Assembly (NCBI GenBank): GCA_951406725.2
Contig: OX597825.1
Location: 37,448,001 to 37,512,000, forward strand
Length of the DNA: 64,000 nt
Direction of reading: 5' to 3'
DNA from: Octopus vulgaris
Lineage: Eukaryota
Part shown: positions 3,512-62,200 of the stretch, one piece after another
How the letters are laid out: each line of letters opens with the position of its first letter
Numbering within the stretch: position 1 is the first letter of the stretch
The notes under the pieces: generated by a model
The model's database searches: none
Told to the model about the DNA's origin: nothing
The model's input: only the letters and a program-made list of their open reading frames with translations
Translations under genes and position numbers: made by a program

Positions 3512-3840
3512 ACGCGTTCGGTGGTAGAGAGTCGAGCTTACGATCGTGAGGTTGTGAGTTCGATTCCCGGAGCGGACTGTGTATTGTGTTTTTCAGCATT
3601 ACGATTTATTTCACGTTGCTCCAGTTCACTCAGCAGTAGAAATGAGTTGCGACGTCACAGGTGCCAAGCTGTATCGGCTGTTGACTTTCACTTGGATAAC
3701 ACTGGTGGCGTGGAGAGGGGAGTCTGGTATGCATGGGCGACTGCTGGTCTTCCATAAACAAACTTGCTCGGACTTGTGTCTGGGAGGGTAACTTTCTATG
3801 TGCAATCCCATGGTCATTTATGACCGAAGCGGGTCTACTC
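3512..3840 (+). mobile_element. tRNA-derived SINE, family B (V-domain-like middle)
   Basis: Pol III-like head GGTGGTAGAGAGTCGAGCTTACGATCGTGAGGTTGTGAGTTCGATTCCCGG. Highly similar to the inverted copy at 5668-6005. Confidence 0.85.
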
Positions 3841-4913: not shown

Positions 4914-4971
4914 TATGAAAGAAAGCTTAAAATCGCATGGAACCGATTGAAACGGTTATATATATATATAT

Positions 4972-5157
4972 ACTCTTTTCAGTCATTCGACTGTGGCCAT
5001 GCTCGAGCACAACATTTAGTCGAGCAAATCGACCCCCAGGACTTATTCTTTGTAAGCCTAGTACTTATTCTATCGGTCTCCTTTGCCGAACCGCCAATTC
5101 ACGGAGACGCAAGCACACCGGCATCGGTTGTCAAGCGATGTTGGGAGGACAAACGCA

Positions 5158-5199
<42 letters not shown>

Positions 5200-5347
5200 T
5201 ATATACGACGAGCTTCTTTCAGTTTCCGTCTACCAAATCCACTCACAAGGCTTTGGTCGGCTCGAGGCTATAGTAGAAGACACTTGCCCAAGGTGCCCCC
5301 ATGTGGTTAGTAAGCAAGCTACTTACCACACAGCCACTCCTACACCT
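4972..5347 (-). mobile_element. tRNA-derived SINE, family A
   Basis: Shares CAAATCGACCCCCAGGACTTATTCTTTGTAAGCCTAGTACTTATTC and CTACCAAATCCACTCACAAGGCTTTGGTCGG blocks with the other copies. Confidence 0.9.
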
Positions 5348-5667
5348 ATATATATTTGATTTTGATTTTTCCAGTTTCAGCTAATGAGCTGTGGCCATGC
5401 TGGGGCACCGCCATTTTATATACATATATATATATACATACATATATACGTACGTACATATATACATACATATATTATTGACATATATAGACATACGTAC
5501 ACATATGCACAAGAATCCTACCCACACATATATGCTATTTTATTATATCCCTTATCGCAAATTATTCTTTTGCGTAATTATTAAGCCGATTTTCATTATA
5601 TAGCCCCTAATATATCAAGGCAGAAATTTACAATTCTGGGAAATGTTGTTTCCCGTAGTATCAGTTA

Positions 5668-6005
5668 AGGGTAAAGACCCCCTTCGGTCATGAATGACCA
5701 TGGGATTGCACCTAGAATGTTACCCTCCTAGACACAAGTCCGGGCAAGGTTGTTTATGGAAGACCAGCAGTCGCCCATGCATACCGGCCTCCCCTCTCCA
5801 TGCCACCAGTGTTATCCAAGGGAAAGACAAAGGTCGATACAGCTTGGCACCAGTGACGTCGCAACTCATTTCTACAGCTGAGTGAACTGGAGCAACGTGA
5901 AATAAAGTGCCTTGCTGAAGAACACAACATGCAGCCCGGTCCGGGATTCGAGCTCACAACCTCACGATCGTAAGCTCGACGCTCTAACCACTGAGCCATG
6001 CGCCT
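5668..6005 (-). mobile_element. tRNA-derived SINE, family B, near full length
   Basis: Minus head GGCGCATGGCTCAGTGGTTAGAGCG (A box)...GAGCTCGAATCCCGG (B box). Inverted homolog of 3512-3840. Confidence 0.9.
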
Positions 6006-16139: not shown

Positions 16140-16520
16140 CGTCGTCATCTTTCTCTGTTAACTGTAGGCTGCTGGTATTGTTTATTTGCACATGGTATTC
16201 CACGACTTTCTACTGTTCCTATCGTTGTTACTCTTGATAATTTCAAAATTCCTCCAGGCTCTTTTATATATACTCTGACCCTTTCCCTATGGTTGTACCC
16301 TGAGAACTGCATGCGGTGAACGAAGTGTTGTATGTGTCTCTTTAACCCTGTAGGGTTGCACATGCGAGACATTTCTCATTACTCTGATGAGGTCTGCCAT
16401 CAATATATTGAATTTGGCATTGCCCGCGGTAGTTGAGTTCCGGTGGATCAGGTACTTGGATGCCATAGGTTTAGCATAGTGTGAATGGAGGATTTGGGTT
16501 TTATTAGATACAGAAATCTT
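16140..16520 (-). mobile_element. Penelope-like element fragment, inverted RT-thumb segment
   Basis: Minus translation ILHSHYAKPMASKYLIHRNS...KFNILMADLIRVMRNVS...HRMQFSGY. Inverted duplicate of part of 16884-17080. Confidence 0.8.
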
Positions 16521-16589
16521 GTTTCCAACCAGAGTTACCAAGGCTTGGAAATTGTTGGCCGTGCATTTCTGAAGTCCAAGAACAATTGT

Positions 16590-18160
16590 CCACATCATCA
16601 TGCGGCCAAACTTTTCATGGTGTGGTTGGAGAGGAGAGTTAAAGAACGCCTGGCACGGAACTCCATACTCATGACCATGTACTCTCGCTATGTCGATGAT
16701 ATCAACATAGTAGTAAAGGCACCCCCACAAGAGAGTACCCTTGAAATACAAATAGAAACTAATACTATGGAGAGTATCCAGCATAGCTAACTCCATTCAC
16801 CAGAGTATTCAGGTCACGATAGACTACCCTGCGAAACACGCTAACTATAGACTACAAGTACTAGATACAGAACTCCGGTTGGAAATATATTGATGGCAGA
16901 CCTCATCAGAGTAATGAGAAATGTCTCGCATGTGTGATCCTACAGAGTTAAAGAGACACATACAACACTCCATTCACCGCATACAAAGGAGAAAATTTGA
17001 AATTATCAAGAGTAACGATAGGAATGCGATTTGCCTATTCTATAGGAGCAAGTCATGGAATGCCATTCAAAGAACTAAGAAGAAAATAGAGAAGGCCAAC
17101 TCATGGTATGATAGCCACAAATACCAGAGTGTCATATTCGTCGATACCAAGACTAGAGGTGAACTGGCGTACCGCTTTAGAAGGGCTCTAGAAAACTTTA
17201 GCTAAAAATTAAGGTTGTAGAAAGACCAGATAACCCTGTTAAATCCCTAAACGGTAGAACCTACCCTTTTAATAGAACCCTTGTAATGATAGGGACTGTA
17301 TTGTATGTAGATTTTTCCCACAAACAAACTGTAAAGCTAGGAATGTAGTCTATATAGTATAAGATGTACAGAGGGACGGCTCAGAAACAAGACAACAACG
17401 TACGTAGGGGGGTCAGCATGGAGCATTCGAGAGCGGGTAAATGAGCATTTGAGAGAACTTAAGGCAGAGAAGGGCGCATATGTGTTATACCAGAACGCTG
17501 AGCGAGAACACTCACGAAGATACGAGTTAAAATTGTTTCCCCTCAGAGAACGCTTAGACAAATTACTGACGCTACACACATGATAGAAGATAAACCTAGC
17601 CTAAATAGTAAACTAAAATGGAACACTAGCACCAGCCACATACACCACAATCTATGGCAGGATAGGATCGCCATAAACTAATAATAATATGAAACTAAAA
17701 CAGTAGACAGATAAATAAATGGAATTAAATAAATGCATAAACAACATATTATAAATTGAATTAAATTAATGCAAAAAAATTAAATTAATACAAAAAAATT
17801 GAAAGGAAAGAAAAAGTAAATAAATAAAAACAAATGTATAAAATAAATAAAAGTAAATTAAACGAACGTGAATAAACATGGGATACTGATAATGCAGGTA
17901 GCATACACATTCGACCCCCACACACATTAAATATAGACACTCACAGGGATATACTCATGCGCAAATAAAGACACACACAACAGGAATACAAAATGGCAGA
18001 TCGTTAGGAAGGAGTGACACAAAAAAGAAAGAAGGAAGCAAAGGACCGCTGATAAGTTCAAAGAAGTGTGACGAAAGAACTCTGATCGAAATACAATTCA
18101 TATGAAATAAAGCTGAAGCAAGTGAACATCAAATATATAGTGCGTGTGTTTTCCTTGGCT
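16590..18160 (+). mobile_element. Degenerate Penelope-like retroelement: RT, GIY-YIG endonuclease and pLTR
   Basis: KLFMVWLE...YSRYVDDINIV (RT motif C), ANSIHQSIQVTIDYP...RLQVLD, and GIY-YIG-like NVVYI...YVGGSAWSIRERVNEH (17340-17450). Degenerate hammerhead CTGATAA...GAAA at 18049-18076. Confidence 0.88.
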
Positions 18161-20915: not shown

Positions 20916-21618
20916 TAATAATAATAATGAAGAAGCACTCCTCAACCACGGTTTGCACAATTAATTGCACAGTTGTAGTCACAACTGAAGTTGCTGTAGA
21001 ACATAAGTAGGTCTAATTAAAGAAAGAGCACTTAGAAAGGAGACTGGCATTATGAAACCATACATTCACAACATATTGATGGTGGGGTCAATCTTAGAAA
21101 TGATGTCACCAGTGTGCTTAATTTGTAATAGAAACGATTGCCATATTATGAATGAATATCCAGGATTTTCCCGAAACAGATATATAAGTTCTGGTGACAT
21201 AATGAGATAGTAAACGTTCTGCACTGGAAACTGTGAAAAGTGGGGGTTTCAGAGCAGGTGATTAAGTAAGGAAGAGGAGCAAAGCAAGTTAAACAGATTG
21301 GTGAGAAACATTTCCCGGATCAGCTTTGGAAAACCACTGAGGTGTAGAATAAAATACTGGACTGCGAAAAACAACTTAAGAATATACGTATATACAGAGA
21401 AAATTGTAGAATATGTGGAACTTGGGATTGCAGAATGCCAGACATTTTTGCAGAATGTCCCAAGTTGGCTTAGGGACAATATAAGAAATTGATGTATGAT
21501 CTAGTTTTCAAAGTTTTGCACTTGAAGCTTTGTCGGAAATGGGGTTTGAAGTAGGAAGAAGATGGCGCAGTCATCGGGTAGAACGAGTTTGAGTTGGAAA
21601 CTTGCACATCAGTACATA

Positions 21619-21682
<64 letters not shown>

Positions 21683-21695
21683 CATATATATATAC

Positions 21696-21751
<56 letters not shown>

Positions 21752-21781
21752 GCGAGAATGAAGCAACAAGAATGGATAGGT

Positions 21782-21872
21782 TTTTAGTACAATCGTTTCA
21801 TACAAGGACAGGTTTTATTAAAAGTTGCAAAAATTACAGCATATAAACGTGTCCCGTACTCATCAGCTAAAA
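21782..21872 (-). ncRNA. Type I hammerhead ribozyme (inverted-arm copy)
   Basis: Reverse-complement copy of 23796-23886. Confidence 0.85.
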
Positions 21873-23795
21873 TACATGTGAGTTCTCTAGACATCCTAGT
21901 GGTTGAGGCTATACTCATGAAGTAATGTAGATAATTAAGTAACATAAACAGATTTCAAAAGTTCATTAAAGTTCTTTAAAGATGATGTACAGTCTTATCA
22001 CAGAATTTAAAAAAAAGTCTTAACAGCATCACAGAGAAGGTGACCCAATCCATAGTGCATATATGAATTTCCAGAGATATGATGAGGGATTACATACTCA
22101 CAGAAGGCAAATTTATCCATTGTTAATTACAACGAGGTGGGTTTCAAATCCTGCTTATTAGCATTACAGAGAGGGTGAATTAATTCTAAAGCATAGAAAA
22201 CATAGAAACCTATTGAATAACCATATCGAACTAGGTCAAGTTTGTGTCCACGCTAAATTGAAGACTTTAAAATATTTTAAATGATTAGAATATTCGTAAC
22301 TAGATAGATAGATATAACCTGATTTCTACTGGTATAGCACTGCTTTAAGTAGATAACTAAGAGTTCTCACACTACAGTTATCTTTTTCCTATATCTGCAT
22401 CAGTTTTTTGAGAACAGGGAAATGAATAGCACTTATTCGCTGCTTAATTGAGGCTTTATTTAATTTCAAACTCACAATTTTTAAATTTTTAAATTCTTAA
22501 TTTTAAATCTTAATTGTAATTTTTAATTTTAGTTCCTAACTTAATCTAATTTAATTAGCATAACTCTAATTAATTAAATTGGGTTACTATAGACCCATAA
22601 TTCTATTTCAAAATTAAATAAATGAGACTATTCCCTCGGTGATAATATGAGTATCTTCATTATGATAGACAATCCCCTAACACCTCTTAAATGATCTTCT
22701 AAGATTTGACCTGTAGTCCGTCAATGTATGAATAATAACGGCAACTCCTTAAGACAATAAAATGAATAAATTAAATAAGTAAATTTTGATGACTTTTTGA
22801 TAAGATTATACCTAGTTTTCCCTAATGTATTTTCTGGTGATTTTAGCATCTGACCCCGAAACCCCTAACTGTGTTATCTCTTTAGATTCTCTTTAAATTC
22901 ATAGCTGATTTCAACAGCAATAAATTAACTGTTTTAACTGGTCAAAGAATAATATTCTCCTCTAATTCCTAGATGCCTGTAAACTAAAACTAGACTTGTC
23001 GTCTACTAATTCTTCTGTATAACTAGAACCCTTTTTTTCTTTTTCTTTCTTCTTTCTTCTTTTTTCTTTTTTTCTTTTTTCTTCTTTTTCTTTTTTCCCT
23101 TCCTTCCCTATTTCTTTCTCTTTTCTCTTTTTCTTTTTCTTCTTCTTATTCTCTTTTTCCTTTTCTCTTCTCTTTGAGTCCCCCTTCCCCCCTTTTTGCT
23201 CCCTCCTCTTTTATTTTCTCTCTTTTATTTTCTCTCTTTTCTTCTATGCCCTTCCCTTTTCTATTCTATACAGCTCTAGTAAGCCCTTCAGCCTTTAAAA
23301 GTTAAATAGCTACAGCCTCTTGTAAATAGCAGTAATGTGATTAATGTGGCAAATACCTAATCATATAGCAAGAATTGATACCTACCTCATTGTGTTCAAC
23401 CATTGATAAATTTATCGCCTGTGAATATGAAATTCCTTGGAAATTTACACCTACACCATTGGAAATTGTGCATCTATACAAAGGATTAATTCACCCTCTC
23501 TGTAATGCTAATAAGCAGGATTTGAAACCCACCTCGTTGTAATTAACAATGGATAAATTTGCCTTCTGTGAGTATGTAATCCCTCATCATATCTCTGGAA
23601 ATTCATATATGCACTATGGATTGGGTCACCTTCTCTGTGATGCTGTTAAGACTTTTTTAAAATTCTGTGATAAGACTGTACATCATCTTTAAAGAACTTT
23701 AATGAACTTTTGAAATCTGTTTATGTTACTTAATTATCTACATTACTTCATGAGTATAGCCTCAACCACTAGGATGTCTAGAGAACTCACATGTA

Positions 23796-23886
23796 TTTTA
23801 GCTGATGAGTACGGGACACGTTTATATGCTGTAATTTTTGCAACTTTTAATAAAACCTGTCCTTGTATGAAACGATTGTACTAAAA
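23796..23886 (+). ncRNA. Type I hammerhead ribozyme
   Basis: Stem I TTTTAG/CTAAAA, core CTGATGA (23802-23808), stem II GTACGGGACA/TGTCCTTGTAT, GAAAC (23869-23873), minimal stem III AC-GATT-GT, predicted GUA cleavage after 23880. Confidence 0.85.
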
Positions 23887-24033
23887 ACCTATCCATTCTT
23901 GTTGCTTCATTCTCGCTTATAATCACCCCACATTACTGTATTGTTAAATCAGTATAGTTTTTTTTGGTGCATCTAAGTTAGGTACCATATTCAAGTAAAT
24001 TCATTTAAATTAACTTGAATCTTTATTGCTTTT

Positions 24034-24133
<100 letters not shown>

Positions 24134-24417
24134 CGCGCATGTAAGCAATTATGTGAGTGTATGTGTGAGTGTGTGTGTGTATGTATCCATATTTTAGTTC
24201 CTTAGCTGTCTGCATTTTCTGAAAGAAAAAGTGTATATATTATTTTATTTAAATGTGATTTATGAAATACAACTATTCGTTTGCATTTTCAATAAAATGA
24301 AAGAAGATATAAAGGATTGTATAAATGTATTAAAAGCATGAAACGTAAAAATTTGTAACATTTCATTGACTATCATTTATTCTTATTACTCCTTAATTAA
24401 CATATTTCAAATATTGA

Positions 24418-24481
<64 letters not shown>

Positions 24482-25382
24482 TATAAGATAAAATCAAAAT
24501 CAAATAAAAATTAGACTAACCGTATGTGAAGTCATTAGAAGACAAGTTAACTTTTAATCCGGATTAAAATATTGGTAGACCGAAATAATACTACAGCTTA
24601 CGAAAGATCGATATAAACTTTTGAGTCTTACGTATTACAAATGAGAAATAATGAAAAGATAAATAACGAAGGAACCATCAATACACGCAAAAAACTAACT
24701 AATAAGGTTTATTAAGACGTCAATGCTTTCTGGAATACTAAATACTTTGAATCATCAGTAGGACAGTTTGGAAAATACTAAAATTATAAATAATCGAATG
24801 TACAGAACATGATAGAAATACTGATAATAAAAACTGACATGTATGTAAAAGTGATTGTTGTATTTGAACTAGAAGATGATTTAAAATATTTTGATTTTGG
24901 TCGATCATAGAATACGTTATAATAATATTCGTTTATTGTTTTATTCTGCTTCTTGTTTTAGTCATTGAAGTGGCTGTGCAGGGGTAGAGTCATCAAAGTA
25001 TTTCATTTATCACTTCAACCCTAGTAATTACATTAATATTACTCTTATATTATTAATAGCTCTGGTTAACGCGGTGAGCTAGTAAAGTTGTTACCACGAC
25101 GGAGAAAATGTTAGTGATGTTTCTTCTGTCAAATTTCACTGAAATCGACATTTTCATCCCTTTAGAGAGTTAATACCAGTTGAGCATTGGTGTTGATTTC
25201 TGCTCTGTTCAGAATTGATGCACTTGTACTAAAATTAGAAAGAATTATTGATTGCTCTTGTACCCGGAACCACGTGATTGCGAAGCGTGCTGCTCAATGA
25301 CACAGTAATGTCTGCACCGACATCCAGTCACTTTCTTAATGAAAATATCCCTCCTCCCTAATATTCATTTCAAACTTTAGAA

Positions 25383-25783
25383 CAAGGCCAGCAATTTCAG
25401 GTGAGAAGTAAGTTGATTATACCAACGCTAGTGCTTAAATAGTACTCTTTATTTCGACCTAGAAAGGACGAAAGGTCAAGTCGATCCTGGCAGAATTTGA
25501 ACTCAGAACACAAAGATAGGTTGGTAACCATTTTTCCGGGCATGCTAATGGTTCTACCACTCACCGCTTTGCTATTCCCTAATATTGGTTTTAAAATCTT
25601 GCACAAAGCAAGCAAGTTCGATTAAATCGATTCCAGTCCTCAAATAGTACTTATTTTATCAACTCGAAAAGTATCAAAAGCGAAGTTGACCCTGGCGGGA
25701 TTTAAACCCAGAACATAAAGACGGACGAAATGCCGTGAAGCCATTTTGCCCGGCATACTGATGACTTTATCAGTTCGCCACCT
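25383..25783 (-). mobile_element. Two tandem tRNA-derived SINEs, family C
   Basis: Two units with minus head GCGGTGAGTGGTAGAACCATTAGCATGCCCGG...GAGTTCAAATTCTGCC and a central GACYTTTCGTCCTTT...GTCGAAATAAAGAGTAC-type block, also seen at 27084-27306. Confidence 0.75.
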
Positions 25784-26161
25784 TCCTGCTCCCTAATATT
25801 ACTGACTATGCCTTTGCTTACAATTGAAGATCTTGCTGCTTTTAGTACGTTCCCCCCAACATATTTGATGACATCATGTCTATAACTAACGACGTTATCG
25901 CTCCAGACCTCCGTCTATCATACTCTATTATTTACTGATTTATTCTGAATTTAGTGATATTTTCTACTTCTAAATCGAATGATTTCATTTTCTTCCAAAC
26001 TTAAATGCATTATCTATTTTTTTTATTTATTGCTTCTAGAGTAGCTGTTTATTGTTAATATACCTCTTTGTATTTACTGGCTGTATCTTTTTATATTTAA
26101 TTTAGTAACTTTTTACATCCATTATTTTAGTGATTTTATACCTCTCTGCATCATTCTCCCG

Positions 26162-26220
<59 letters not shown>

Positions 26221-26221
26221 C

Positions 26222-26524
26222 ACCTTGAAAGATTTTAGTCGAATGAATCATCATATTACTTACATTTTTAAAAACCTATTGCTCAGTTTATCATTCTATT
26301 TTGCTGCACTGCTGGGTTACGGGGGGCCTAAATATACCAACATCGGTTGTTAAGCGATAGTAGGAGAGAACCGTAAACACGAAGACACATACACACAAAC
26401 ACATATACGACGGGCTTGTTTTCATTTCCCTCTATCAAGTTCACTCACAAGGCTCAAGACACTTGGCACGTGGTTATACTGAACCCAGAACCACGTGGTT
26501 GGTTAGCAAGCTTCTTACCACACA
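26222..26524 (-). mobile_element. Degenerate SINE, family A
   Basis: CATCGGTTGTTAAGCGAT, TACGACGGGCTTG, CACTCACAAGGC and GCAAGCTTCTTACCACAC blocks. Confidence 0.7.
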
Positions 26525-27083
26525 TGTATATATATATATTATGTAATGGATCAACCCATTTCCATTTAATTTTATTCCTTTTCGAATTTACTGATTCTTT
26601 TCCCACCCTGCTAACATTTACTGACTTTTATCTTAGTTCCTTAGATCTGAATAATCTCAATCGTTACAGGCAATATCAAAATTTCTTCAATGTTTTTGAT
26701 GGTGTGAACAACATTGACAGATATTTTCTAATATTAGTGTCTGGCTTTATAATCATGAGCATTCTTCCATTGATTTATATTTAAGATATAAATCTTTATA
26801 TAGATTTTACACAACAAAATTCTGATTTTCGTTGTGCATTTTTGCTCTCTGTAGAATAGTGTTACATTCTCTGTATGTATAGCGAAATCAATTTTACTTT
26901 CGGATTTCGACATACACCTTGTACATGTTATTAAGCTTCTTTCTTTATTTCTTTCTTGTTATTACTACTACTACTACTCTTTTTATAATGAAATATAGTT
27001 ACTTAAGAAAGTGGCTACTTCGATACCGTAGGTAGTCAACACAGTAATACTTATAATTTCTATTTTTATTAGTTTCAAATTCT

Positions 27084-27306
27084 GCCAAAAGGCCAGCAAG
27101 TTCGGTGGAGGGGTTAAGTCGATTACATCGACCCCCAGTACTCAGCTGGTACTTACTTTATCGAGCCCGGAATGATGCAAGGCAAAGTTGACCTCGACGG
27201 AATTTGAACATAAAGACTGACGTAATGCCACTAAGCGTTCTGCCTGGCATGCTAACGATTCTGCCATTTTACCTGGCTTGCAATCGATTCTGTCAGCTCA
27301 CCGTCT
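27084..27306 (-). mobile_element. tRNA-derived SINE, family C
   Basis: GTCGATTACATCGACCCCCAGTACTCAGCTGGTACTTACTTTATCGAGCCCGG...GGCAAAGTTGACCTCGACGGAATTTGAAC...CAGCTCACCG. Confidence 0.85.
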
Positions 27307-27314
27307 TAATTCCT

Positions 27315-27790
27315 ATTATTAATAATATTTACTGTTATCTGTTGCTTGTAGAACCGGAATCCAGTCAACGGTTCTAGGGCACCAAAGGAGGTGTTTGTAC
27401 AATATACGGGAGAGCACCTTTCTTAGTATGTAGGCTGTTCTCTTTTGGAAGTTTTGGATATTGACTTTGCCAGGCATTTTGAGGGTAAATCTGTTTAATT
27501 TTCTTTCCACGAGCTCAACAGCACCGACAAGGATAGGTATTACTTTAGTATCCACTACCTAGACCTCTACATTTTTGGAAGTTTATAACGTTGCGGTGAT
27601 TTTTCTGTATGTATTTTTCTCTTTGATGGTATTGCAACGTTTGTTATTAGGCATTTCTATTCCTTCTCATCCCTAATAATGATGTCCGGACGGTTTGATG
27701 TTATTTTCCGGTCTTTATGAATAGGCACATCCCATAGTGTGGAGACTGTTTCGGTTAATGGTCATACTATTTCTCGGTGGTCTCGAACTT
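27315..27790 (-). mobile_element. R4/Dong-like RLE LINE 3' fragment
   Basis: Minus translation WDVPIHKDRKITSNRPDIIIRD, TKVIPILVGA, KRTAYILRKVL. Confidence 0.8.
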
Positions 27791-32990: not shown

Positions 32991-33027
32991 TTGTTAATTG
33001 GCCTCCTATATTATTTATGTCCATATA

Positions 33028-33428
33028 GGTGCAGGAGTGGCTGTGTGGTAAGTAGCTTGCTTACCAACCACATGGTTCCGGGTTCAGTCCCGCTGCGTGG
33101 CATCTTGGGCGAGTGTCTTCTGCTATAGCCCTGAGCCGACCAAAGCCTTGTGAGTGGATTTGGTAGACGGAAACTGAAAGAAGCCTGTCGTATATATGTA
33201 TATGTATGTGTTGTGTGTATATGTTTGTGTGTCTGTGTTTGTCTCCCTACCATTGCTTGACAACCCACGCTGGTGTGTTTACGTTCCCGTCACTTAGCGG
33301 TTCGGCAAAAGAGACCGATATAATAAGTACTGGGCTTACAAAGAATAAGTCCCGGGGTCGATTTGCTCGACTAAAGGCGGTACTCCAGCATGGCCGCAGT
33401 TAAATGACTGAAACAAGTAACAGAGTAT
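33028..33428 (+). mobile_element. Full-length tRNA-derived SINE, family A
   Basis: A box GAGTGGCTGTGTGGTAAG, B box GGGTTCAGTCCC, CORE-like ATCTTGGGCGAGT, internal TG tract, tail GACTGAAACAAGTAACAGAGTA. Confidence 0.92.
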
Positions 33429-36287: not shown

Positions 36288-37200
36288 TTGTATCAAAATA
36301 TCGGGTAAAATATCGGATGTATATATATATATATATTTGTATCAATATATCGGGTAAAAGCTTTGCTTTATTGGTTCCGATTCAAATCCTGTTTTCACCA
36401 ATGTTACCTTGCATCTTTCAAGAGAAGAACATGTGAAACCATTCAGAGTATTTACTGCGAGAAACACTTCAATTCTATTGAATTCTATTAGAGAGGTTCA
36501 TTGACCTTTTGCTAGAGTATGATGGAAGATAAACCTTGTGTAAATCGAGTTCAATTCTTTATTGAGTGAGATATTTTCTCCTTATTTTCTACACTTTTCT
36601 TTTTATTGTCCATGTTGCTTACTTAGAGTTTTTTTTTATATGAGCTGAACTCGGTTAAATCTCAATTTCATACGCAATCACAGAGACCTCTGCATCTATC
36701 ATTGGCATTGACGTGATGGAATTGATGTCCATATTGTTTTTAATTAAATTTCCATGATCCGTTTTGAGAGGTTTTCTGGATGGACCATTTCATCAATACG
36801 TTTTAGTGTTGAGAGGCACTTTCGTTGGTGCATAGGAAGATCTGTTCTTTTTAATTATTTAAATATCTCCATTATTAATTTGTCGTATTCAAAATTTCCT
36901 TCCTCAAAAATTCTTATTATTTAATAACTTTCATAAACATTTCTGTTTCTATTTTTGCATGCATTTTCAGATTTGATTTTTGTCTTTTAGTATTCTGTTA
37001 TGTATGATTATTCAATTTGCTTTGCGCATATTAGTTCTATCATTATGATTTAAGTTCTCAAGATTTAAGTTTTCTCTTTTGTATTTTCTATTGCTCTTTA
37101 AATTTGCGGCACTACAAATTTCGTAGACCATATATATTATTTTTTAATTATTTACATTATTTACATTCGACGGATATTTGCCCTCATCTTGTTTGTTGTT

Positions 37201-37246
37201 AACACAACGTTTCGGCTGATAAACCCTCCAGCCTTCATCAGATGTC
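37201..37246 (-). ncRNA. Minimal hammerhead motif
   Basis: Minus GACAT-CTGATGA-A-GGCTG-GAGGGTTTAT-CAGCC-GAAAC-GTT-GTGTT. Confidence 0.7.
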
Positions 37247-37515
37247 TTGGGGAAATTCCTAAGGTATTTTTCCATGTTATTATTATGATTATTATTATTC
37301 AGGTCACTGCCTGGAATCGAACTGGAAATCTTGGGGTTAGTAGCCCACGCTTTTAACGACTACGCCATATGCTCACGGGCATATGTTTAAGAGCGCGGGC
37401 TACTAACCCCAAAATTGCGAGTTCGATTCCAAGCAGTGACCTGAACAACAATAATAATAATAATAATAATAATGATAATAATAATAATGATAATAATAAT
37501 AATAACAATAATAAC

Positions 37516-37601
<86 letters not shown>

Positions 37602-37650
37602 CATCGAAGAACACCCTAGGAATGAGAACCCAGGTTCGAAATTTCCCCAA

Positions 37651-37695
37651 GACACCTGAAGAAGGCTGGAGGGCATATCAGCCGAAACGTTGTGC
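37651..37695 (+). ncRNA. Minimal hammerhead motif
   Basis: GACAC-CTGAAGA-A-GGCTG-GAGGGCATAT-CAGCC-GAAAC-GTT-GTGC, with palindromic AACGTT stem III. Confidence 0.7.
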
Positions 37696-39847
37696 TGACA
37701 TGAAACAAGATGAGGACAAATATCCGAATGTAAATAATGTAAATAATGTACATAATTCCTTATCTCTTAAATATAGAACTCTATATTAGTTTTGTTTTAC
37801 CGGAGATATGTCACAGAAAAAAACATACATAACGAAGAGAACTGTATCTTTCTTGTCCCATTTTGAGTTTTCCTTGCTTTTTACAATTTCGAGATTTGAA
37901 GGCTGAAGATTATTTAGAATATCATAGTTTCCGTCGTCTTCCGGTATGTTTGCATCTGGTGGTACTGAAATGTATACGTGCTACATTTGGTATTTTTAAT
38001 GTATCAAATTGAAAAATCGCATTCGTCTACTTAATCTAACGTAAGTGATATTGTTATTTTATGCATTATATACAATTTTCGAATGGAAGACAGCATTAAG
38101 CAAGTGCTGTTATGAAATATGCTTCAAAACTTTGTTTATACTTGATACATATCACCAAGCACTATCTACATTTGTAATAAATTAACTGCGAGAGCTGTTA
38201 ATAAACATTAGTATTTCCAAGTATTACATAGCTATTTTAAAAAATAATCACATTGTTATATGACTCGTTATTTCTAGTCGTTATTTTTGGATTTTTTCGG
38301 AGCAGTCAGGAAGATTTGTGAGGAAATGAGCTTTGACCATGGAGAGCATGCAAGCAATAGACTACTGTTGAAACCCATCTATATTCATTATTATAATTAT
38401 TATCTGTCTGCTGTTAACATGATTTGTTCTCCGTTAGTTTGTTTATACGTGGCATCCGAACGTCGTCCAATACGAACATTTTCAATACATTAATTATATG
38501 AGGAGAAAAGATCAATAAATTTTACTACTAAGACTTAAACAGTTATTTTTTCAATATATTTTTTGTTTAATTTTTCCAGATTTGATTCATTGTTATTTAA
38601 TCGTTATTAATGCATATTTTTTCAGAGCAACCATGTAATGTCCTCTCATATTAAATGTCCTCTCGTATTAACACACTAAAACATAAATTTAAACAATACA
38701 CACGCACACAGAAAGACATTAAAAACAATAATAAATCTTTAGGAATACTAGTCAAATAAAGTTAAGACATTGCTCAGCTATCAAGGGTAAAACTATGTTT
38801 CAATTGCATATCACTTGAAAATGTACGCGATTGCTGGCTCTTATTTGTTTTGTTTAATTAATGTTAATCGTCAGAAGTCACAGACGCCAAGACTTGCACA
38901 CGTTGCTCTTTATCAAATAAATTTGATACGAGCCTATATGCAATGCACGAAATTCTGTTCCATTGACTTACGCGTATAACATCTGCCGGTTCAAAAGTAC
39001 AAAATATGTACATACATGTATTTAAATCTGTTTGTTCGGTTTTCTTCTATTGAACCAATTTATTTATGTAAATGTATGCGTATGTATAGGTGAATATATG
39101 TATAGGTGTGTTTGTAAAGGCGAATATATGTCCATGCCTCTGACGTTCGAAGCTGTTGGCTCTGCCATACTTGTAGAGCTTGTCTTGAACAAATAAGAAG
39201 CCTCTATAAGACTGCCATGCGAAGGATATTTGGAAGTTGCCTATAGTCTCCGACCTGAAAATTCTCTAGTAAAGACTGCTCAGACTATTCCCGCCGATTC
39301 ACAGAATCAATCACATCCCATCATCCGTCATACTCTCAAATGAACCTCATTAAAACCTGTCAAAATTCTATATGACAAACACTAGCCCTGGATTACGTCT
39401 GACTCATCGTTTGACTCATGAATACGGCTTTAGGTAAAGTACCGTGCTATAGTAAGACGTGTTGCACGAAGGACGGCCACACCACTTTTCCCTAATATCG
39501 GGTTTTGTCGGCGCCTTTGTAATAATTTAGCTATTTCTGCAAAGAGGAGCATCCAGAGATAATCTCTTATAGTGTATTAATAAATGATATATTTTCTGAT
39601 GAGTAAAAATTGCCCTTGCCTCAACAATCGGAAAAAGCAGGTGCTCTTATCCAGTCAGAGGTTTTTTTGAACAAGGTTCATGGTAGTACAATCCATGGGG
39701 AATGTATATGGATTAGCTACCTCTGTCTGACTCTTCCTGGACGGCTTTCTCTCAGTCTATATCTGAGAGAGCCGGGTCACCCAGTTTGCTGCATCATATC
39801 ACTTCCTATTAACCTAGAGATATGATTTGATTTAGGATCTAAGCACT

Positions 39848-51731: not shown

Positions 51732-51958
51732 ACTCTCTTTACTCTTTTGTTTTTTCAGTTATTTGACTGTGGCCATGCTGCAGCACCGCCTGTTAGTCGA
51801 GCAAATCGCTCCCAGGACTTATTCTTTGAAAGCCTAGTACTTATTATATCGCTCTTTTTTGCCGAACCGCTAAGTTACGGGGACGTAAACACACCACCAT
51901 CGGTTATCAAGCGATGTTGGAGGACAAACACAGATACACAAACATATACACACATATA

Positions 51959-52003
<45 letters not shown>

Positions 52004-52154
52004 TACGACGGGTTTCCGTCTACCAAATCCACTCACAAGGATTTGGCCGGCCCGAGGCTATAGTAGAAGACACTTGCCCAAGGTGCCAAGCAGTGAGACT
52101 GAACCCGGAACTATGTGGTTCATAAGCAAGCCACTTATCACACAGCCACTCCTA
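51732..52154 (-). mobile_element. tRNA-derived SINE, family A
   Basis: Near full-length match to the reverse complement of 33028-33428. Confidence 0.92.
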
Positions 52155-55279: not shown

Positions 55280-55613
55280 GTCGAATCGACCCCCAGGACT
55301 TATTCTTTGTAAGCTTAATACTTATTTTATCGGTCTCTTTCGCTGATGTTGCGGAAACTTAAACACACCAACATGAGTTGTCAAGTGATGGTGGTGGTGG
55401 GGGGACAAACACAGACAGACAAATCACTCTTTCTATATATACATATACATACGATAAGGATTCTTTCAATTTCTGTCTAACAAATCCACTCAGAAGGCTT
55501 TGATCGGCCCGAGGCTACAGCATAATACACTTGCTCAAGTTGCCACGCGGTGGGACTGAATCTGGAGCCATGTGGTTTGGAAGCACGCTTCTTAAAACAC
55601 AGCCACGTCTGCG

Positions 55614-55617
<4 letters not shown>
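55280..55617 (-). mobile_element. tRNA-derived SINE, family A
   Basis: Shared family A blocks. Confidence 0.88.

Positions 55618-55703
<86 letters not shown>

Positions 55704-59829: not shown

Positions 59830-62200
<2,371 letters not shown>

Follow-up and report, generated by a model that had tools for sequence, protein, structure and literature searches.

We analysed a 64,000-nucleotide stretch of the Octopus vulgaris genome (assembly GCA_951406725.2, contig OX597825.1, positions 37,448,001 to 37,512,000 of the forward strand; hereafter the window), which carries at 37147-37780 two opposed copies of a short dispersed repeat. Each copy runs from a tRNA-like head through an (AAT)n spacer and a minimal hammerhead ribozyme motif to a 9-mer repeat. 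From the sequence, it seems probable that the repeat is a high-copy unit joining such a head to a minimal hammerhead and to a tail of the kind found in Penelope-like elements (PLEs), and that the pair was pasted in during one event by a PLE reverse transcriptase (RT)-endonuclease using an RNA that RNA polymerase III (Pol III) had started. We also put forward, with confidence slightly better than even, that the unit belongs to a PLE lineage living on a captured tRNA promoter, in which four or more divergent families, from two animal hosts, would have kept their parts in the order A box, B box, hammerhead, tail. Both the ribozyme and the way of insertion are established PLE features; new, as far as found, is a PLE-type repeat with a conserved tRNA-type promoter.

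The head-to-head fusion described in the original prediction for this locus was borne out: the two arms are 88-89% complementary within two long blocks and are centred on a 20-nt palindrome with a 2-nt loop (Table 1). Both begin at the equivalent of tRNA position +1, 7 bases ahead of the A box, and both carry a B box and the predicted CTACTAA anticodon-like loop. An A box had been claimed for each unit; that of the left arm differs by one change from the family majority, but most of the right one is taken out by an 8-nt gap in the arm alignment, in which the left arm has a gap of 19 nt. The (AAT)n run, about 152 nt in the right arm versus about 23 nt in the left, lies inside the unit and not at its 3' end; the predicted AAT spacer is present in both arms, but it is specific to the window family and absent from the sister families B, D and E described below. 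The tail, 33 nt long, is found on the right arm only. The left arm departs from the family majority at 8 and the right arm at 14 of 185 aligned columns, which indicates that the pair has decayed, and the genomic pair at 37147-37780 is likely dead.

A hammerhead had been predicted in each arm, and a descriptor search of both strands found exactly two motifs in the 64 kb, both within the pair (30 shuffled windows gave a mean of 0.07 and at most 1). Both ribozymes fit the minimal type I PLE kind, with an extra base after A9 and G10.1-C11.1, and their 6-bp helix II and palindromic CG match the PLE consensus (PMC4209133; this source, PMC3846280, PMC8557442, PMC6765202, PMC2770079, PMC10886601, PMC7229834, PMC7761336 and bioRxiv 10.64898/2026.07.22.740005 are cited from excerpts, and what is said of them applies to those excerpts). 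The self-complementary AACGTT of the predicted stem III is present, yet the conserved helix III is only the 4-mer ACGU, whose pairs are intact in 10/10 and 9/10 of the aligned ribozymes. The base at the cleavage position is U in 5/10 and A in 5/10. Across the families the ribozyme covaries: 4 of 13 ribozyme pairs have changed on both sides across 10 ribozymes, and the score of 0.238, against 0.151 in shuffles, is reached by 0/500 shuffles and beats all slid controls, although these counts come from 10 related, non-independent sequences and give no probability, which lessens what they can bear for our reading. Within the window family, the only parts of the ribozyme where variants exceed 5% are two CpG sites (5-26%) and loop II. 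The left arm has one helix I base of its own, and a substitution weakens helix I of the right hammerhead.

The two ribozymes lie on opposite strands, and no tandem same-strand arrangement occurs in the window. Since a read-through RNA of the pair would contain one sense and one antisense copy, the usual hammerhead dimer could not form in cis; this RNA is predicted to fold into a long hairpin of -285.6 kcal/mol (0/20 shuffles as stable). Folding of single arms gave no cloverleaf and no unusually stable ribozyme (z -1.1 to +1.1), and the Rfam hammerhead model had no match at the locus. Five of 30 joints among those listed fall at 37203-37208, near the predicted cut; this clustering (p 0.002 for this site fixed beforehand, 0.03 when a twofold higher likelihood is granted to the region, 0.15 for any window of 6 nt) is suggestive only, and we do not count it as support.

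The ends of the family were read from sequencing contigs aligned to the left arm (22,285-27,511 pieces per DNA run, three DNA runs). Summed contig depth on the left arm reaches about 10^5 times that of the single-copy flank; as it is summed over overlapping contigs it gives no copy number or dimer fraction, and a dip near the centre of the pair comes partly from the left arm's private changes. We infer that the family runs to thousands of copies or more. The best-supported 5' exit is at 37372, where 96, 95 and 111 contigs in the three DNA runs finish a 12-nt palindrome and then enter unlike AT-rich flank; this 5' end of the family is a hairpin of 5 bp whose loop has 2 nt. Given that 95-111 contigs per run exit into unlike flanks, many copies are single and have one common 5' end. 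The suggestion that an inverted dimer is the normal insertion form goes too far in view of these single exits and of the sister insertions, of which 3/6 are pairs. At the other end, exits at 37780 were seen in all four runs (305, 374, 235 and 22 contigs), again with unlike AT-rich flanks, and family 3' ends fall at 37778-37784; 208-297 contigs exit near 37147. Contigs of the four runs showed no poly(A) at family 3' ends. One run that may be of RNA covers 37758-37860, which is no sign of expression. In being short (100-700 nt), dispersed and high in copy with fixed ends, the family answers the description of a short interspersed nuclear element (SINE); instead of the poly(A) or simple repeat typical of a long interspersed nuclear element (LINE), its 3' end is a PLE-type tail.

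Outside O. vulgaris, the translated ribozyme region has matches of 74-78% identity in gene models from Octopus sinensis and O. bimaculoides. A 26-nt family motif was not found in JGI metagenomes, and the family alignments had no match in viral contigs or metagenomes; run against genome contigs, they yielded one locus (L001) from 82 candidates. L001 is animal-like DNA in a bacterial assembly (G001). From a profile search came 44 translated copies of the repeat, which fall into three groups and were aligned together with 2 cluster members. The sister search covered 1.06 Mb of three G001 contigs, 0.51 Mb (511 kb) of it animal-like. Close copies of the window family (family A) are absent from the G001 DNA examined, and six related insertions lie in its animal-like part, three of them head-to-head pairs; none of these three has two complete heads. 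Units are 270-415 nt long. As a separate observation, G001 is a metagenome-assembled genome whose contigs C16, C52 and C61 (L022-L075) hold at least 0.51 Mb of animal-like DNA, which is microsatellite-rich and joined to bacterial DNA inside single contigs. Among the translated relatives, family B forms in-frame tandem arrays with a unit of about 42 codons and family C with one of about 36, the units reaching from the ribozyme to the tail end in a retrozyme-like manner (proteins P0004-P0010, P0027, P0031, P0033 and P0045).

The sister families bear out the predicted tRNA-type head as genuine and conserved. The left arm and three sister families have a 5' head in which the A and B boxes are spaced as in a tRNA. 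All 3 sister copies with a complete 5' end have the A box 202-217 nt upstream of the ribozyme and the B box beyond it, and all three heads start at the identical tRNA +1 position. In 5 of 6 pairwise comparisons, the similarity of the heads was equalled by at most 1/500 shuffles; the heads of families B and D are homologous to the window head, but A versus E was equalled by 82/500 shuffles. The tails, too, are homologous among the sister families and the window family. Heads of ribozyme units make up 3/7 of the A-box/B-box pairs in the 511 kb (background, 0.002 per 300 nt), a count that loses some force from the B-box pattern having been widened after a stricter one missed family E, which has an extra T.

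The putative tRNA derivation of the head rests on the A and B boxes, their spacing and their conservation; it may resemble eukaryotic Arg, Ile or Thr tRNAs, and the bacterial tRNAs of G001 were uninformative for naming its source. A start by Pol III would be expected to leave the fixed 5' end at tRNA +1 that the four families have, and the RNA behind the inserts was probably started by Pol III at the head. A T4 terminator is absent in 5/5 arms, a weak result as 23-63% of shuffles likewise have none. In families A (window 37633-37642) and B (L001:5022-5032) we also observed a second B-box-like word, GTTCGA, situated some 20 nt upstream of the ribozyme; a similar word occurs in family D, and the 19-nt gap deletes the copy of the window's left arm.

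The insertion footprint was compared with that of PLEs. A direct repeat of 12 bp (11/12) flanks the whole pair, and only 0.2% of 9129 random and 0.8% of 5049 AT-rich control positions scored as well. The family D pair has a perfect 12-bp duplication and the truncated E pair one of 13/16, and a one-sided tail is seen in 3 of the 4 head-to-head pairs (the window pair and the sister pairs). Like a PLE terminal repeat (pLTR), the unit has a minimal type I hammerhead with an extra base after A9 and a palindromic helix III, a tail within the 30-40 nt that pLTRs may carry at one end, and an inverted arrangement with a palindromic junction, inserted whole in AT-rich DNA. The footprint of the pair is the published PLE insertion signature, not that of a LINE-driven SINE. 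The proposed mobilisation by Penelope machinery is supported by the one-sided tail, the palindromic head-to-head junction, the 12-bp duplication, the AT-rich flanks and the lack of poly(A). In its workings the unit is like a SINE that a PLE drives.

Table 1. Features of the head-to-head pair (positions in the window) and the sister insertions in G001
Feature	Position	Strand	Remarks
Left copy of candidate 12-bp target-site duplication	37133..37144	+	11/12 match to 37782-37793
Left arm, tail-less: complete head, short AAT spacer, gap of 19 nt, hammerhead	37147..37374	-	arm alignment
Left minimal type I hammerhead	37201..37246	-	predicted cut (GUU) between 37206 and 37205; descriptor scan and covariation
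Left short (AAT)n spacer	37277..37299	-	arm alignment
Left tRNA-like head	37300..37374	-	+1 equivalent 37374, A box 37367-37357, CTACTAA loop 37343-37337, B box 37323-37313; homologous to sister heads
Palindromic junction, 20 nt	37366..37385	.	loop 37375-37376; inner 12 nt are the usual family 5' end
Right arm: A-box-deleted head, long AAT spacer, hammerhead, 9-mer repeat, tail	37377..37780	+	
Right B box	37420..37430	+	
Right (AAT)n spacer, 50.7 copies	37450..37601	+	specific to window family; absent from sister families B, D, E
Open frame, 55 codons, ATG through ribozyme and tail	37622..37789	+	possible PLE frame start
Right minimal type I hammerhead	37651..37696	+	predicted cut between 37691 and 37692
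9-mer repeat, 3.3 copies	37727..37756	+	at tail-less 3' end
PLE-type tail, 33 nt	37748..37780	+	family 3' ends pile up at 37778-37784; homologous sister tails
Right copy of target-site duplication (likely)	37782..37793	+	
Family B			complete single copy
Sister insertion			truncated single copy
Family D			head-to-head pair
Family E			pair and separate piece beside
Family E			pair of truncated copies

Several described systems share parts of this layout. The window pair resembles Adineta Pen2a, Pen2 and Pen3a in its head-to-head repeats, one-arm tail of 30-40 nt, palindrome, duplication of about 10 bp and solo pLTRs (PMC3846280, PMC8557442). Pen2a itself has inverted pLTRs, a 31-bp tail on one of them and a 9-bp duplication, and related Adineta families have palindromes at the pLTR 5' end (PMC3846280). 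Unlike the Adineta pLTRs, which have putative TATA and initiator (Inr) elements of RNA polymerase II type, the window unit starts with A and B boxes and has no frame between its arms (PMC3846280). Inverted copies and one-sided tails are general PLE features (PMC8557442). Minimal metazoan PLE hammerheads, including opposite-strand pairs 100-700 bp apart in Schistosoma, were reported in 2014 (PMC4209133); the window ribozymes share with them the extra base that follows A9, a long helix II and a short helix I, the palindromic CG and a C-G-U-U core as in Lottia, whereas the excerpts mention no tRNA-type head there and the supplement files searched hold no octopus entry. Poseidon_Ac of Anolis is alike in that its ribozyme overlaps the frame start, its targets are AT-rich and its two 3' ends, with 30-40 nt between them, come about 110-160 nt downstream of the ATG (PMC11167929). 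In vitro, its protein nicks and extends both strands of AT-rich DNA; two internal RT start sites define the tail, and RNA beyond them is required. Its ribozyme cuts only with protein and is dispensable for in vitro insertion (PMC11167929). Unlike the window unit, Poseidon_Ac is a coding element with biochemistry done and no tRNA head described (PMC11167929).

Pol III promoters and hammerheads have been found together elsewhere. Schistosome Sm-alpha and Sj-alpha are likewise short high-copy retroposons with a tRNA-related Pol III promoter followed by a hammerhead; they differ in having a canonical hammerhead and tandem arrays cleaved to monomers, and the excerpts describe no PLE tail or inverted pair (PMC6765202, PMC2770079). 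The TRIMp3 elements Helenus, Ajax and Cassandra have a small-RNA-derived Pol III promoter inside the terminal repeat, for which a SINE inserted in the repeat has been proposed as the source; in Helenus a tRNA promoter lies in the long terminal repeats (LTRs) (PMC10886601). They differ in being of the LTR class, with a primer-binding site, a polypurine tract and 4-5 bp duplications, and the excerpted main text does not contain the word 'Penelope' (PMC10886601). Animal non-LTR retrozymes and Chlamys MRC1 are, like the window unit, short non-coding hammerhead/pLTR units thought to be carried by PLEs (PMC7229834, PMC7761336, PMC8557442), and non-autonomous Chlamys exist (PMC8557442). Retrozymes are tandem head-to-tail, form circular RNA and are said to be promoterless, in contrast to the inverted pair with a promoter-like head seen here (bioRxiv 10.64898/2026.07.22.740005). 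The label of a 'retrozyme hybrid' claims too much, as retrozymes are tandem and promoterless in PMC7761336 and PMC7229834, and the ribozymes of the window lie on opposite strands. No publication on a tRNA-headed PLE repeat was found in open-access PubMed Central and bioRxiv (Repbase and subscription journals are outside this scope), and 'hammerhead' does not occur in the text or supplement of the O. vulgaris repeat annotation (PMC13282606).

The following route may account for the pair. The unit would be the pLTR of a PLE whose lineage captured a tRNA-type promoter long ago, and Pol III would start at, or a few bases before, tRNA +1 of a master copy. At an AT-rich site the PLE protein would nick both strands, with about 12 bp between the nicks, and reverse transcription, primed at each nick, could begin at two internal starts 33 nt apart, which would leave one arm with the tail and the other without. 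Both cDNAs would then reach the 5' end of the RNA and anneal through the 12-nt terminal palindrome, and repair would leave the pair and the duplication. Priming at both nicks and a meeting of the cDNAs at the RNA 5' end are suggested by analogy, from the layout of Adineta Pen2a and the biochemistry of Poseidon_Ac. Cleavage by the ribozyme would call for a dimer of two sense copies or for the help of a protein, and would not take place between opposed arms.

A number of results speak against this account or against parts of it. Four of the six sister insertions have no significant duplication, and one of the four pairs carries tails on both arms. The junctions are asymmetric in all three sister pairs, so annealing through the terminal palindrome cannot be what happens in general. 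The 3' class at 37147, called 'tail-less', is a mixture with a consensus that extends into the tail by about 10 nt. The window head and the sister heads were matched by neither ARAGORN nor the Rfam tRNA model, and Rfam gave nothing beyond chance hairpins. A coding master is not favoured by the comparisons between families, which show no third-position bias downstream of the ribozyme (mismatches 15/16/16, 11/8/8 and 19/24/23), and family E breaks the frame. The protein search for a coding PLE had 3 candidates of 98-2000 aa, of which the 1 that matched is a model of a host gene, and the longest of the 44 translated relatives has 183 aa, with no long protein starting with this peptide.

Whether the master copy is the pLTR of a coding PLE or a free non-coding SINE was weighed on these and further grounds, and we lean modestly to the former. 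The frame from the ATG at 37622 to the tail end is open (as in 1-3% of 5000 shuffles), and the corresponding frame is open in family B too. Short copies that end at the tail lack the downstream RNA that Poseidon_Ac requires (PMC11167929), which weighs for a coding master. A Pfam search of 10 of the 44 translated relatives for a coding partner was negative, and no RT and GIY-YIG frame flanked by the unit was found in the 511 kb of sister-host DNA or in protein searches. A segment of protein P0034 that may be PLE-like and lies directly before a family C ribozyme also speaks for a coding master, although Pfam, Atlas and PDB did not confirm it. If the family were a free non-coding SINE lineage with a PLE instead of a LINE as its partner, short Pol III transcripts of head, ribozyme and tail would suffice for the PLE protein, insertion would proceed by the route given above, and no coding element would bear the head. 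We consider this somewhat unlikely. It agrees with the fixed 5' and sharp 3' ends between unlike flanks, with units of 270-415 nt without T4, with the missing long coding continuation, with the lack of visible coding constraint and the broken frame of family E, and with the translated families B and C as tandem ribozyme-plus-tail units. It is at odds with the need of Poseidon_Ac for RNA downstream of its starts (PMC11167929) and with the frame from ATG to tail, which is open in both family A and family B as it is where a pLTR contains the beginning of the coding frame (PMC3846280).

The pair could instead have arisen by fold-back, the terminal palindrome of one cDNA that had reached the RNA 5' end forming a hairpin and priming its own copy, or an antisense template could have served for self-priming. 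In the window family the 5' end is a hairpin on which the junction is centred, and self-priming has been proposed from such palindromes in Adineta (PMC3846280), but fold-back does not predict that the second arm ends at the common family end, 33 nt short of the first. In addition, only one identical departure from the family majority is common to both arms, among 20 differing columns, although post-insertion decay could give the same; we regard fold-back as unlikely. Far less probable is a LINE-driven tRNA SINE with an (AAT)n tail that lies beside a PLE fragment by chance, or two independent insertions. The head with (AAT)n does resemble a simple SINE, and contig depth is lower over the head than over the ribozyme; this reading is largely refuted by the joining of head and ribozyme in both arms and in three AAT-less sister families, and also faces the single occurrence of the family B head in G001, on its own ribozyme unit, and the single duplication that flanks the pair. 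We give almost no weight to a DNA transposon resembling a miniature inverted-repeat transposable element (MITE) with long terminal inverted repeats, or to an assembly artefact. A long inverted repeat flanked by a direct repeat would suit a MITE, but the unit also occurs singly and 5'-truncated, and the outer ends are unequal by the tail. The arms are about 11% different, with private indels, so they do not stem from read-folding, and single-copy contigs join both outer ends to the flanks.

Other PLE remnants were observed apart from the unit. A separate decayed PLE lies at window 16145-17600, with the RT motif YSRYVDD, a GIY-YIG remnant (Pfam E 0.004, below the cut-off) and an inverted 5' piece (16308-16409 versus 16884-16985, 93%). 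The descriptor found no hammerhead in it, no tRNA-like head lies alongside, and no relative of its RT piece was found. An isolated GIY-YIG remnant follows a (TA)n run at L037:8636-8960, with no ribozyme unit or such head nearby. The gene models P0001 and P0003 (an uncharacterised membrane protein of O. sinensis and dystrobrevin beta of O. bimaculoides) begin inside the element, in the part corresponding to 37622-37730, and leave it no more than a codon away from the first GTAAAT in the 9-mer repeat; exonisation via a splice donor is possible, as are gene-model artefacts. The window has further long inverted repeat pairs, 21613-22187 with 23482-24097 (88%) and 3518-3836 with 5675-5994 (90%), and another dispersed repeat family of at least six copies, 69-82% alike (2041-2432, 4971-5351, 33007-33427, 51740-52154, 55284-55637 and 61501-61667).

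If our reading is true, Pol III capture would extend beyond LINE partners (SINEs) and LTR partners (Helenus, Cassandra) to a third retroelement class. With a non-coding master, the family would represent SINEs partnered by a Penelope enzyme and not by a LINE; with a coding master, it would be an autonomous retrotransposon, and the RNA that is copied would begin at a Pol III promoter. The fixed 5' palindrome of the window family would serve as a built-in joint for two cDNAs primed at both nicks, and the head-to-head footprint of PLEs would become directly testable. A unit of 330 nt with a fixed start, two fixed ends and likely thousands of copies should be a good substrate for work on PLE head-to-head insertion and on the role of the ribozyme. 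In the octopus, where 893 of 900 recently active SINE families are listed as unclassified (PMC13282606), some of these SINEs may be PLE-driven.

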